This document shows, in pieces, positions 3,063-35,136 of a stretch of 64,000 nt of DNA. The position numbers were made by a program, and so were the translations under genes. The DNA lies in assembly GCA_036517155.1 (NCBI GenBank), contig DATDXY010000009.1, positions 2,141 through 66,140 of the forward strand, given 5' to 3'. The first letter of the stretch is position 1. Each line of letters begins with the position of its first letter. The stretch comes from Minisyncoccota bacterium (GTDB lineage Bacteria; Patescibacteriota; Minisyncoccia; UBA6257; 02-FULL-45-10c). The notes below the pieces were generated by a model. It did not search any database. It was not told the DNA's origin and saw only the letters and a program-made list of their open reading frames with translations.

Positions 3063-4040
3063 TTAGATATCGGTAAAAATCGCTTCTAATTTTGGAAACG
3101 GACTTTGCTTTGCAAATTGAATTGCGGTTTCGATATCTTGTTCTACGGAGCGAACAATGCTCTTTCGTTCAACATCCGGAAGAAGATTGTGGGTTTCTAA
3201 AATTTGTTCAAAAAGTTTTATGGGATCTTTTTGCATCCATGCGTCTAATTCTTCTTTAGTGCGATGACCAAGATGATAATCAGTATTTGGACCGACATGT
3301 TCTTTCCAGCGATAACAAGTCGCTTCAATAAACGTTGGGCCATGGCCGCTTTGCGCCCGACGAACGGCGCGCTGGGTAGAGAAAAATACTTCGGTCACTT
3401 TCGTGCCATCAACTCGAACTCCCGGGATTCGATACCCAGCGGCTCGTTGATGTAATTCTTTGTGCGGTTGCCGAGCAGAGATATGAGTGCAGGTGGCGAT
3501 TTCATTGTTTTCACAGACAAAAATTATTGGCAATTTATGCAAGGAAGCAAAATTCAGGCTCTCGTGAAAGGTCCCTTGCTCAAGGCTGCCATCGCCGAAA
3601 AAAGCCACCACCACATTATTTTTATTTTGTTTTTTTGCAGCGAAAGCGGCGCCTACCGCTAATGGCAGATTACCGCCGACAATTGCTGAAGCGCCGTAGG
3701 CACCTACTTCCGGGGCGACAAAATGCATGGAACCGCCCTTGCCTTTAGCGCAGCCTGTTTCTTTTCCATAGAGTTCCGCGAACAGCGTTTTAAAATTTGC
3801 GCCTTTAGCCACAGTGTGGCTATGACAACGATGAGTGCTAAAAATAATATCGTTATTTTTCAACGCTCCGCAGACCCCAGCGGCTACCGCTTCTTGGCCA
3901 ATGGATAAATGCACCGGACAGCGCATTTCTTGCTGAGGGTATAATTCGGCGATTTTTTCATCAAATTTTCTAGCCCGAATAAGGGCAGTATAGAGCTTAT
4001 GGGCAATAGTCGGAGTAATAGGTTTTGGAGAGTGTTCCAT
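3063..4040 (-). CDS. TPP-dependent dehydrogenase E1 component alpha subunit
   Basis: TPP-binding motif GDGSLEQG...NN (FFGDGSLEQGTFHESLNFASLHKLPIIFVCENN). ORF track extends to 4211, but start at internal Met (MEHSPKP, ATG at 4040) avoids overlap with the 4105..4599 gene. Confidence 0.8.
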   Translation of the reverse strand: MEHSPKPITPTIAHKLYTALIRARKFDEKIAELYPQQEMRCPVHLSIGQEAVAAGVCGALKNNDIIFSTHRCHSHTVAKGANFKTLFAELYGKETGCAKGKGGSMHFVAPEVGAYGASAIVGGNLPLAVGAAFAAKKQNKNNVVVAFFGDGSLEQGTFHESLNFASLHKLPIIFVCENNEIATCTHISARQPHKELHQRAAGYRIPGVRVDGTKVTEVFFSTQRAVRRAQSGHGPTFIEATCYRWKEHVGPNTDYHLGHRTKEELDAWMQKDPIKLFEQILETHNLLPDVERKSIVRSVEQDIETAIQFAKQSPFPKLEAIFTDI

Positions 4041-19464: not shown

Positions 19465-20019
19465 TTATGGCTGGAGAATATCCTCAATCCGGCCATCTAT
19501 AGAAATAATGACTTCTTGAACAGTCGGAAATTGTTTCAGGGTTTGGGTGATTTGGGCACGAATAGCGGAAACTCGGCAAGAGCCGCCCACCTGATTTTCT
19601 AATTGGGTATCAAAATCTGCTTTAGCGACGCCATTTTCAATAGTTAAGCTCTGTAACTTTACGTTTTCATTCAGACTAGTAAAAAAACCGTCAGTTTTTT
19701 CTGCGCTGGTTGGCCCTTGTAAGAGCGCCAAAAGAGAAGCGCGGCCAACGGCGGAAGTTTTTTCTATTTCCCGAGTAACCGGAAAAACTTTATTGCAGGA
19801 AAATTCCGGATCCAGATTGCTGTTATTAAAGAAAGCCCGGACAACCATAGTTTCTTTCTCTTTTTCTTCAGCCACGGAAAGAAGCGCATTGCCAGAAAGA
19901 TTTTCTTGCAGATCGGCCATTGTATTGCTGCTGCCGTTCCGTGCCCGATAAATCCACCCGCCAATCAAAAGAACTATTAGAATAAAAATAGTCCAATATA
20001 CGATTTGTTTGTTTTTCAT
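19465..20019 (-). CDS. GerMN domain-containing membrane-anchored protein
   Basis: N-terminal TM; GerMN-like region (VFPVTREIEKTSAVGRASLLALLQGPTSAE...VQEVIISIDG). Confidence 0.6.
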   Translation of the reverse strand: MKNKQIVYWTIFILIVLLIGGWIYRARNGSSNTMADLQENLSGNALLSVAEEKEKETMVVRAFFNNSNLDPEFSCNKVFPVTREIEKTSAVGRASLLALLQGPTSAEKTDGFFTSLNENVKLQSLTIENGVAKADFDTQLENQVGGSCRVSAIRAQITQTLKQFPTVQEVIISIDGRIEDILQP

Positions 20020-20054
20020 ATAGGCTAATTATAGCACTTCTTACTGGAGTTCTA

Positions 20055-20077
20055 TATTTGTGCCCTCGAAGGGAATC
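20055..20077. repeat. 23-bp direct repeat = duplicated 3' end of tRNA-Arg (17 nt) plus 6 nt of flank
   Basis: tatttgtgccctcgaagggaatc identical at 20055..20077 and 20265..20287. Confidence 0.8.
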
Positions 20078-20215
20078 AGGGTTTCGCTCGCAGCTAGATA
20101 GCCCGCTCGCTCACCGAACCCTACCGCCGCACCCCGACCCCCGTACTTGGACACCTTCGGTTTCCAACGTCGCTTCGCTCCTGCCTTCCTGATACGGGGT
20201 GCGGCTGGTTCGATT
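20078..20215 (-). ncRNA. unassigned GC-rich structured element between the tRNA-Arg 3'-end repeats
   Basis: On minus strand: 5' GGGAATC pairs with 3' GATTCCC; internal long helix GCCGCACCCCG / CGGGGUGCGGC; GC content far above surroundings; no ORF with RBS. Confidence 0.25.
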
Positions 20216-20231
20216 CCCATATCAAAAACAA

Positions 20232-20262
20232 AATAAAAAATCACTCGGCAAGCGAATGATTT
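20232..20262. terminator. hairpin flanked by A-run and T-run (terminator-like) between tRNA-Arg and the structured element
   Basis: aaaaaATCACTCGgcaagCGAATGATttttt, 8-bp stem with one mismatch. Confidence 0.4.
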
Positions 20263-20270
20263 TTTATTTG

Positions 20271-20342
20271 TGCCCTCGAAGGGAATCGAACCCCTATCAA
20301 CCGGTTCGAAGCCGGTTACTTTATCCATTAAGCTACGAGGGC
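20271..20342 (-). tRNA. tRNA-Arg (anticodon UCG)
   Basis: GCCCTCGTAGCTTAATGGATAAAGTAACCGGCTTCGAACCGGTTGATAGGGGTTCGATTCCCTTCGAGGGCA; anticodon loop CTTCGAA. Confidence 0.85.
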
Positions 20343-20417
20343 CTTTTGTTTGAATCTTATTATAAAGCTTCAAAAATAAAAAGGGATCTAGAATCAGATC
20401 CCTTTTTAGCGGGGTGG

Positions 20418-20558
20418 TTAAGCGGAGGTGGCGACGGCAACAATGATAAGGATAACGCCGACTGACAGGAAAGAAATGCAGGTTATTTCGTGAGTTTTTC
20501 TGATTCTCCAACTAACTGTGAACGACAATATGGATGAGGCCAGAATCGCGGTGAACAT
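20418..20558 (-). CDS. small 2-TM membrane protein (46 aa)
   Basis: RBS GGAGG 8 nt upstream of ATG; MFTAILASSILSFTVSWRIRKTHEITCISFLSVGVILIIVAVATSA; below track cutoff. Confidence 0.45.
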   Translation of the reverse strand: MFTAILASSILSFTVSWRIRKTHEITCISFLSVGVILIIVAVATSA

Positions 20559-31558: not shown

Positions 31559-31820
31559 AGTCTTGTACTTCACATATTTTACCAATCAAGCGAAACGAAT
31601 TTTTAGACAGATTCGCGACGCGATGAGCGAGTGTGCTGGATGCACTCGAGCGAAGAGCAACAAAGAAGATGGCAAAAATTCGTTCGCCCGAAAGGGAAAT
31701 AAATTTTGAACGATTTCTTCGTTGCTTCTCCTCGACGTACTTCCGTACGTCTTGTCGTCGCGCCTTGAACTCATTTCAAAATTTATTTCTTGATTTGGCG
31801 AGATATGTGAAGTACAAGAC
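31559..31820 (+). repeat. 18-bp perfect inverted repeat (gtcttgtacttcacatat ... atatgtgaagtacaagac) enclosing 226 nt, right arm abutting the mature 23S 5' end
   Basis: Arms at 31559..31576 and 31803..31820. Confidence 0.7.
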
Positions 31821-34910
<3,090 letters not shown>

Positions 34911-34989
34911 CGTTGGAATTATCCAACATTTACAAGAGAATATGACTGACTCTCTTGTGTAAGTATTCATTTCATTTTTTACTTTTAAT

Positions 34990-35136
34990 TGCCTCCAGTG
35001 ACTTCCTGGTGATTTAGCAGTAGGTGTCCCACCTCTTCCCATTCCGAACAGAGAAGTGAAATCCTACTGTCCTGATGATATTTCCTGCTTCGGCGGGTGA
35101 GAAAGTAGGGTTCGCCGGGATATCAGTGGAGGCAAT
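34990..35136 (+). rRNA. rrf: 5S ribosomal RNA (slightly expanded, ~147 nt)
   Basis: Helix I TGCCTCCAGTGA/TCAGTGGAGGCA; conserved CCCACCTCTTCCCATTCCGAACAGAGAAGTGAAA. Confidence 0.85.

Follow-up and report, generated by a model that had tools for sequence, protein, structure and literature searches.

Transfer RNA (tRNA) genes are classical landing sites of integrative elements; the occupants known so far measure kilobases and encode an integrase of their own. Reiter et al. 1989 and Williams 2002 are said to have described the integration of tyrosine-integrase elements into tRNA genes, with a T-loop sublocation. Some recombination sites act as folded single strands, among them the attC sites of integrons and the hairpin of the CTX-phage attP(+), which is used by XerCD. 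The Patescibacteria have tiny genomes, in which selfish DNA is thought to be scarce. Partial tRNA copies have been found to flank elements of 9-23 kb (PMC9897764). Here we describe a much smaller occupant, located behind the tRNA-Arg(UCG) gene in a 64,000-nucleotide stretch of a Minisyncoccota (Patescibacteriota) chromosome (contig DATDXY010000009.1; the whole stretch is called the window). At this locus, the 3' end of an intact tRNA gene shows a polymorphism of the insertion type, whose limits are formed by a perfect repeat beginning in the T-loop. On balance we read the segment at 20055-20264 as a miniature, non-coding, non-autonomous insertion element that occupies the T-loop/3' end of the tRNA and would rely on an enzyme supplied in trans.

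The duplicated 3' end of tRNA-Arg(UCG)

In the sense of the tRNA, the locus is ordered as tRNA, terminator, inverted T-arm copy, GC helix, the segment GGTAGGGTTC, a 38-nt branch hairpin and the distal repeat. Its parts are:

20271-20342, minus strand: tRNA-Arg(UCG) gene, intact and without encoded CCA (ARAGORN; Rfam RF00005, 71 bits; lower end at 20270 or 20271)
20265-20287, minus strand: proximal copy of the 23-bp repeat, covering tRNA positions 57-73, from G57 of the T-loop up to the discriminator base, and 6 nt of the 3' flank
20231-20269, both strands: terminator hairpin with a 17-bp stem, a 5-nt loop, an A-run on one side and a T-run on the other
20207-20218, plus strand: inverted T-arm copy, GGTTCGATTCCC on the plus strand and GGGAATCGAACC on the minus strand; 12 nt, 100% complementary to 20281-20292
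20126-20205: long GC helix with arms 20126-20136 and 20195-20205 (GCCGCACCCCG/CGGGGTGCGGC); 11 nt, 100% complementary
20147-20167: enclosed hairpin, TTGGAAACC-GAA-GGTGTCCAA as minus-strand sequence
20116-20125, minus strand: segment GGTAGGGTTC, resembling the 5' side of the T-stem (tRNA 44-56, GATAGGGGTTC), a likeness that is not statistically significant by itself
20078-20115: branch hairpin domain, 38 nt, located exactly at the TC/GA dyad of the split T-arm copy; its loop, ATCT, is conserved
20055-20077, minus strand: distal copy of the 23-bp repeat, made up of the tRNA 3' end from G57 of the T-loop onward and 6 nt of flanking sequence

The 23-mer TATTTGTGCCCTCGAAGGGAATC was found exactly twice in the 64 kb, even when up to three mismatches were allowed, and none of 100 dinucleotide shuffles contained a match. 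In the tRNA sense the repeat reads GATTCCCTTCGAGGGCA-CAAATA, the first part being 17 nt of tRNA and the second 6 nt of flank; with two mismatches the direct repeat reaches 28 nt. The spacing of the copies is 210 bp, with 187 bp between them. A first-pass annotation of this DNA, made from the letters alone, had reported this perfect repeat, and repeat and spacing were found as it described them. As at the attL and attR attachment sites of integrated elements, the 3' part of the tRNA is present as direct repeats and the tRNA itself is kept intact.

The repeat region is no assembly artefact, since six independent public contigs, those long enough to span the 831-bp intergenic region, agree over it with 100% identity. 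The sole polymorphism seen among the public contigs of the population, present in one further contig, is a single-nucleotide change at 20093 (G in the window, C in L004, one of the fetched loci that are given here as L numbers), which breaks a predicted base pair of the branch hairpin.

Empty sites and a second carrier

Eighty metagenomic loci were fetched via the neighbouring gene for the CCA-adding enzyme, and further orthologous loci via two flanking proteins and their homologues. The element was present in 2 of the 43 tRNA-Arg(UCG) loci that had enough downstream sequence. These are the window and L074, the sole homologue, which lies at the orthologous tRNA-Arg(UCG) in a host whose CCA-adding enzyme is 72% identical to that of the window. 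Nine orthologous tRNA-Arg(UCG) loci in related genomes were empty, those of the nearest relatives of both carriers included. In these a closely similar or identical tRNA is followed directly by a terminator or a gene, and there is neither element nor repeat:

L010: empty; CCA-adding enzyme 84% identical to that of the window, tRNA gene 100% identical
L157/L158: empty; CCA-adding enzyme 75% identical to that of the window
L156: empty; CCA-adding enzyme 74% identical to that of the window
L159 (a Harrisonbacteria genome), L160, L161/L162 and L163: empty; CCA-adding enzyme 77-80% identical to that of L074

A neighbour-joining tree of the CCA-adding enzyme placed the window with the empty L010 and L157, and L074 with the empty L159, L161 and L163; the two carriers are not sister lineages. 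Two independent acquisitions of the element are more parsimonious, since inheritance would have to be followed by at least four losses and so require more events. A comparison with orthologous loci for empty sites had been proposed in the first-pass annotation, and the nine empty relatives support insertion. In these relatives, similar AAATAAAAAA-stem-TTTTT terminators stand directly behind the tRNA, which favours insertion just after the native terminator over insertion inside the T-loop.

A folded core with compensatory changes

On the minus strand the hairpin at 20269-20231 scores as an intrinsic terminator for the tRNA, its 17 pairs leading into TGTTTTTGAT. Since the T-run behind it is mirrored by an A-run ahead of it, the hairpin is symmetric and usable from the plus strand too. 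It is also the centre of a longer interrupted palindrome that links the T-arm at 20281-20292 with the inverted copy at 20207-20218. The inverted copy had escaped the first-pass annotation, which had noted the terminator-like hairpin, the self-complementarity of GGGAATC with GATTCCC and of GCCGCACCCCG with CGGGGTGCGGC, and a composition unlike that of the neighbourhood; all of these held on re-examination. The segment 20078-20218 has a GC content of 63.8%, compared with 42.1% for the flanks, and the hairpins, about 130 nt, have 64%.

In the predicted folds the two halves of the inverted copy have different partners, GGGAATC pairing with the distal repeat and GAACC with 20116-20120. The GGTAGGGTTC segment and the distal repeat together make up a split T-arm copy. 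The long GC helix at 20126-20205 encloses the hairpin at 20147-20167 and a GCGAAGC motif at 20172-20178. A single strand of the element can thus be modelled as a three-way junction, in which the main stem would be a duplex copy of the T-arm interrupted at the TC/GA dyad. With RNA parameters the folding z-scores were -2.6 for the minus strand and -3.0 for the plus strand, and 1 of 200 shuffles was as stable on each; with DNA parameters they were -4.2 and -3.7, respectively, and none of 200 shuffles was as stable on either. Minimum free energy, fold z-scores and counts of G-U versus A-C pairs did not single out either strand.

L074 has a terminator of unrelated sequence, an 11-nt inverted T-arm copy, the core, and a 17-nt perfect distal repeat. 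The cores of the window and L074 are 77-79% identical and the CCA-adding enzyme genes 70% identical at the nucleotide level; the terminator regions next to the core could not be aligned. In a consensus fold of the two sequences, six base pairs were changed on both sides with pairing kept, and on the opposite strand there were five. Two of the six lie in the enclosed hairpin (pairs 68/86 and 69/85; TTGGA/TCCAA in the window, TAAGA/TCTTA in L074), three in the branch hairpin (128/144, 131/142 and 134/139) and one in a small stem. Every pair of the long GC helix at 20126-20205 is kept in L074. Selection acts on the secondary structure of the element.

The distal repeat follows its local tRNA. The T-stem of the L074 tRNA has G49-C65 where that of the window has A49-U65, and the distal repeat of L074 carries the local C65 (CCCTC, not CCCTT). 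The repeat was therefore copied from the local tRNA or has been kept matched to it. Conservation between window and L074 extends past the distal repeat to one further feature:

20045-20054: short block beyond the distal repeat, TAGAACTCCA in the window and CAGAACTCAA in L074, with a -10-like TATATT on the plus strand

This block is kept although the downstream genes differ, and it may belong to the element.

Analogous modules at other tRNA genes

A screen for 14-mer duplicates covered 284 tRNAs in the fetched loci, and in 11 of them the stretch between T-loop and 3' end was repeated directly 100-324 nt downstream. Five modules with the layout of the window were recognized in other Patescibacteria:

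L054: behind tRNA-Pro(UGG)
L078 and L101: behind tRNA-Pro(CGG)
L057: behind tRNA-Arg(CCG); the inverted copy matches 19/20 nt of the local tRNA 3' end
L049: behind tRNA-Gly(UCC); the inverted copy carries the unusual T-loop base of that tRNA

In each, a terminator is combined with an inverted copy of the local T-loop, with GC-rich hairpins and with a perfect repeat of 16-20 nt of the local tRNA. The five are homologous to one another, with collinear conserved blocks and a covariation score above those of all 500 shuffles; in one hairpin of this group, six of the nine pairs are changed on both sides. Global identity between the window/L074 type and the five is 48-53%, and the motifs common to both are GGGTCGG, GCGAAGC and a GAAACC...GGTnTC hairpin. 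A grouping by eye of all seven modules as one family was not supported by a leave-one-group-out nhmmer search or by a covariance model. Because neither gave a homology signal, shared architecture is claimed here and not family membership. RNAalifold on a seven-sequence MAFFT alignment was uninformative, the alignment being poor. No long form occurs among the seven modules, and in loci of up to 10 kb every such repeat was within 330 bp of its tRNA.

The GCGAAGC heptamer, read on the tRNA-sense strand, was also seen in the cores of L074, L049, L057 and L101, that is, in both element groups. In L057 it makes up nearly the whole of a 10-nt insert that splits the distal T-arm copy. As DNA, GCGAAGC forms an unusually stable mini-hairpin.

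Coding potential, RNA families and copy number

A coding role for the element was rejected. The sole open reading frame (ORF) runs through the tRNA, and no frame survives the indels of 8, 3, 2 and 1 nt that separate the window from L074. In public gene calls a 95-amino-acid (aa) protein spans the element and reaches the tRNA gene (window 20041-20328, minus strand; L001:5692-5979); it is almost certainly spurious.

Rfam 15 was searched with the whole window at the gathering threshold and with 19950-20450 at E <= 10, and only tRNAs matched. For 20055-20230, on either strand at E <= 10, there was nothing bar one chance match of 14.7 bits, against a gathering score of 79. A cmscan of the element, which the first-pass annotation had named as a check, thus returned no family for it, and an Rfam search of six loci with analogous modules likewise gave tRNAs only. 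Searches of a phage collection by blastn and of IMG/VR by exact-pattern scans gave no match or chance matches only, the latter being GC-rich coding DNA, a phage tRNA-Leu and isolated terminator hairpins. A scan of GTDB genomes with the 3' 18-mer of the tRNA, which did not reach the source genome itself, revealed no locus with two copies; it did yield three loci with analogous modules.

Comparison with known systems

The window resembles the attL/attR products of tyrosine integrases in the repeat running from the T-loop to past the 3' end, in the intact tRNA, and in the presence of the insert in some relatives only. It differs in that only 187 bp lie between the repeats, instead of 9-23 kb or more, and in that there is no ORF; no integrase is encoded there, and no recombinase domain was found in the neighbouring genes or in the 19 large window ORFs. 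It further differs in consisting of GC-rich hairpins plus an inverted T-arm copy, and in having its distal fragment split at the T-loop dyad.

Like cis-mobilizable elements (CIMEs) and miniature inverted-repeat transposable elements (MITEs), the element is short, lacks an enzyme gene, has a target-derived repeat and inverted terminal sequences, and is presumably moved in trans. Described CIMEs, however, are several kb long, and the element is far smaller. Unlike those of MITEs, its inverted ends copy the local tRNA T-arm and not a parent transposon, for which no candidate was found; and its repeat is 23 bp (16-20 bp in the analogues), whereas MITEs have a fixed short target-site duplication. 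MITEs are also dispersed in many copies per genome, and the 64-kb window holds one copy of the element.

With integron attC and the CTX-phage attP hairpin the element shares an imperfect palindrome of ~100-150 nt, a stem that rebuilds a duplex site, and the keeping of structure over sequence. Read from the sequence, its ATCGAAC and GTTCGGT boxes are each one position off the R'' and R' consensus of attC (RYYYAAC/GTTRRRY), and they bound an imperfect palindrome of ~105 nt with an asymmetric internal loop, the range for attC being 57-141 nt. In contrast to attC, the element is a single site, and the 64-kb window has no integron integrase, attI or cassette array. Its target differs too, being a tRNA T-arm in place of attI or dif, and recombination as a single strand is for this element a supposition drawn from its fold.

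The miniature elements (PATEs) of IS200/IS605 type and the omega-RNA guides of TnpB/IscB are similar in that a hairpin scaffold of ~130 nt abuts ~20 nt of flanking target, in a guide-plus-scaffold format, and in insertion beside a short specific motif. The element differs in matching neither HEARO nor IS605-orfB in Rfam, and no TnpA, TnpB or IscB was found in the window; moreover, the supposed guide also matches the intact tRNA gene and would target itself. The GC clusters of yeast mitochondria (PMC4478555) and the Rickettsia palindromic elements are, like the element, small GC-rich self-complementary non-coding inserts of patchy distribution in an AT-richer genome. Both of these, however, are present in many dispersed copies, and neither specifically targets or rebuilds tRNA 3' ends.

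Three further candidates were rejected. A group I intron was dismissed because the tRNA is uninterrupted, the junction follows C56 and no Rfam intron matched. The window has T, and L074 A, immediately ahead of the distal repeat; group I introns follow a 5' exon that ends in U and themselves end in G. A casposon-type fixed duplication and a classical transposon with terminal inverted repeats and a target-site duplication were excluded by the junction sequences and the variable repeat length.

A proposed miniature tRNA-targeting element and its rivals

We lean towards a miniature insertion element. It would have entered the 3' end of tRNA-Arg(UCG) at, or just behind, the T-loop. Its inverted T-arm copy would pair with the split direct copy (GGTTC, then the branch hairpin, then GATTCCC...) and so rebuild the duplex T-arm target, and a recombinase or nuclease encoded elsewhere would recognize this fold and exchange it with the T-loop region of the tRNA. 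The direct repeat would then be an att-like product, and the element would bring its host no benefit. Excision is predicted to leave the empty junction tRNA-Arg ...GGGCACAAATA + TAGAACTCCAG and a circle junction ...GCGAGCGAAACCCT + GATTCCCTTCGAGGGCACAAATAAAAAATC. Movement would have to occur in trans because there is no room for an integrase. A hairpin-type att site is proposed because the layout of site, inverted site, ~100 nt and site is that of attC and the CTX-phage attP. The stronger fold z-scores obtained with DNA parameters fit recombination of single-stranded DNA and do not prove it. The attL/attR-like signature and the possibility of a miniature tRNA-targeting element had been raised in the first-pass annotation, and the nine empty loci, the non-sister carriers and the like modules elsewhere strengthen both.

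Several observations weigh against this reading. The host tree is based on one protein and is rough, only one homologue of the element was found, and compensatory changes are equally expected of a functional RNA. The nhmmer comparison of the five modules with the window and L074, leaving out one group at a time, gave E > 1, and the covariance model of the five (R1), with filters off, matched neither the window (20055-20222) nor L074 at E <= 10. Repeat boundaries vary, from 16 to 23 nt among the analogues, and are ill-suited to a fixed staggered cut. By BLAST, the element is single-copy inside the 64-kb window. No recombinase, transposase, TnpB/IscB or reverse transcriptase was found among the 19 large window ORFs tested, and a profile screen of the window ORFs gave no small GIY-YIG ORF. 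Finally, no filled/empty polymorphism was seen among the public contigs of the strain.

A small structured RNA gene is a less probable explanation that still deserves some credence. Best read as a plus-strand RNA, it would act in trans as an antisense or guide against the tRNA or its gene; ~14-23 nt at its 5' end would be perfectly antisense to the 3' end of tRNA-Arg, a GC-rich scaffold would come next, and the transcript would stop at the bidirectional terminator. Hairpins maintained by compensatory changes suit such a gene, as does the hairpin at 20231-20269, which with runs on both sides could terminate plus-strand transcripts. So do the distal repeat, perfectly matched to the local tRNA in both carriers where the inverted copy has decayed, and the ~10 conserved nt past the repeat with a -10-like hexamer, TATATT in the window and TGTAAT in L074, immediately upstream on the plus strand; closing-stem mismatches in L074 and L057, moreover, become G-U pairs only on that strand. 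On the other hand, no Rfam family was matched on either strand, a consensus promoter scan beside the element called none in the window or L074, L054 and one L049 hairpin favour the other strand by their G-U pairs, and the fold z-scores do not tell the strands apart. Further, the closing stem sequesters the supposed seed, and a host RNA gene ought to be present in the nearest relatives of each carrier, where the element is absent. The RNA-gene explanation and mobility of the element are mutually compatible. The particular version offered in the first-pass annotation, a small RNA co-transcribed with tRNA-Arg, is not supported as it was put, since the tRNA is separated from the element by a strong intrinsic terminator.

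The same annotation had also suggested the scar of an excised or deleted element, that is, that a larger integrative element (a phage, an integrative and conjugative element or similar) was internally deleted, leaving an inert ~190 bp by the att sites. This is improbable. The direct repeat of a tRNA 3' end starting in the T-loop is the classical tyrosine-integrase product, displaced tRNA fragments free of any element are common in related loci (for example at tRNA-Ala in L085, L101, L134 and L136), and the region downstream of tRNA-Arg is rearranged among relatives. Against a scar, a core of ~140 nt with six compensatory pairs is present in two non-sister lineages, which independent deletions are unlikely to have produced; no full-length version was seen among the seven modules or as a repeat farther than 330 bp from its tRNA; and there is no integrase nearby. 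We regard as very improbable a purely local rearrangement, in which the tRNA 3' end was copied, both directly and in inverted form, through template switching or slippage at the palindromic terminator. Quasi-palindromes are known hotspots of template switching, and the T-arm, terminator and inverted T-arm copy do together make up a single long interrupted palindrome with the terminator loop at its centre. Such an event would nonetheless leave ~130 nt of 64% GC without a source in the 64-kb window, and would explain neither the conservation of the core with covariation in L074 nor the same layout at several tRNAs.

To return to the miniature insertion element, a broader proposal, which we put forward only tentatively and consider doubtful as yet, is that these modules are the cis core of undescribed enzyme-less mobile elements of Patescibacteria that find tRNA genes by nucleic-acid mimicry. 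A folded strand or a transcript with sense and antisense copies of the T-arm/3' end would serve as recombination substrate or guide. If so, a new tRNA target would need only changed copies, which would explain modules of one design behind tRNA-Arg, tRNA-Pro and tRNA-Gly, the ends of each being copies of its local tRNA. Att-like duplication of tRNA 3' ends is known; a structured, enzyme-less occupant of ~200 bp, with ends that copy the target directly and in inverted form, is not in Rfam, and no description of one was found in the literature searched. The locus may represent tRNA-gene integration in a minimal form, ~200 bp of structured non-coding DNA; modules like it and small inserts that encode GIY-YIG proteins are met repeatedly at tRNA ends across Patescibacteria. 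If they are mobile, the modules define the minimal cis requirements for the targeting of tRNA genes, and could lead to a recombinase or nuclease that recognizes a folded T-arm copy. There is a practical consequence for annotation as well, in that displaced tRNA fragments can pass for tRNA genes and gene callers annotate a spurious protein.

Other small inserts at tRNA genes

Mobility of small tRNA-end inserts in these bacteria is shown by two cases. L087 has a 324-bp insert behind tRNA-Pro with a small GIY-YIG ORF and a 17-bp repeat, and L091 is a clean empty site for it (L087:4920-5243 versus L091:6490-6580); the two loci are identical over 600 bp upstream. A 141-nt non-coding element at tRNA-Ala(CGC) in L118 (5596-5745) is 98.6% identical to one at tRNA-Ala(GGC) in L131 (3397-3537). 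The hosts are only ~75% identical in the enzyme-gene region, which indicates recent transfer. The family to which this 141-nt element belongs has the motif GAGCG.AGCGAAAGGC and ends in a terminator-like hairpin plus TTGTrr; a weaker copy is at L133:750-822.

All nine small GIY-YIG ORFs in the fetched loci (~85-95 aa; PF01541 was confirmed for two) adjoin tRNA genes, sitting inside inserts that duplicate part of the tRNA. Further such inserts are in L124/L141 (~3435-3711), L049:3392-3646, L058:7293-7559, L098:8766-9062 and L134:1965-2627. In L058 and L134 the GIY-YIG ORF is flanked by 19-bp terminal inverted repeats, CCCCTCAC.../...GTGAGGGG, whose terminal GGGG rebuilds the tRNA 5' end, beside a duplication of 4-10 bp. 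The GIY-YIG insert with inverted repeats looks like an undescribed tRNA-targeting mini-transposon.

In L125 (1437-1771, minus strand) the whole 3' half of tRNA-Arg(UCG), positions 29-73 from the anticodon stem on, has a second copy 262 nt downstream. Within this duplication lies an AT-rich insert of ~215 bp with terminal inverted repeats of ~22 bp, a further small element and an insertion of the anticodon-loop type. One or two tandem displaced 3' halves stand behind an intact tRNA-Ala(CGC) at L101:7222-7390, and also in L085, L134 and L136; the L101 fragment has a 24-nt insertion in its T-loop (GGTTCGA/.../ATTCC) that echoes the branch hairpin of the window. Small zinc-finger/HNH-like ORFs lie between clustered tRNA genes in the Saccharibacteria-like L049 (4094-6948) and L057 (6170-6631). 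A 318-aa reverse transcriptase (Pfam RVT_1, E 7e-21) is encoded ~2 kb from the element behind tRNA-Gly.

The surroundings in the window

The window is an ordinary Patescibacteria chromosome, with genes for RNA polymerase, topoisomerase I, RecG, RelA/SpoT, ParB and DprA, and 23S-5S rRNA. The neighbourhood of its tRNA-Arg is a rearrangement hotspot. Two adjacent paralogous ORFs of 436 and 456 aa (15652-18329, minus strand), between the MazG and AhpC genes, are missing in the syntenic L010; they have an N-terminal hydrophobic segment and repeated G-rich motifs, with no Pfam match on record. Between its tRNA-Arg and GerM genes, L010 in turn has a tRNA-binding-domain gene and a laminin-G-like gene, and the window lacks both.

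In the rRNA region of the window (31816-35121) the 23S gene has 3092 nt, against 2925 nt in the bacterial model, and contains several inserted blocks; two of them, of 67 and 44 nt, stand in place of 2 and 9 nt of the model. A 5S gene follows it, and there is no 16S gene in the 64 kb. An expanded 23S-5S arrangement lacking 16S is typical of bacteria of the candidate phyla radiation.

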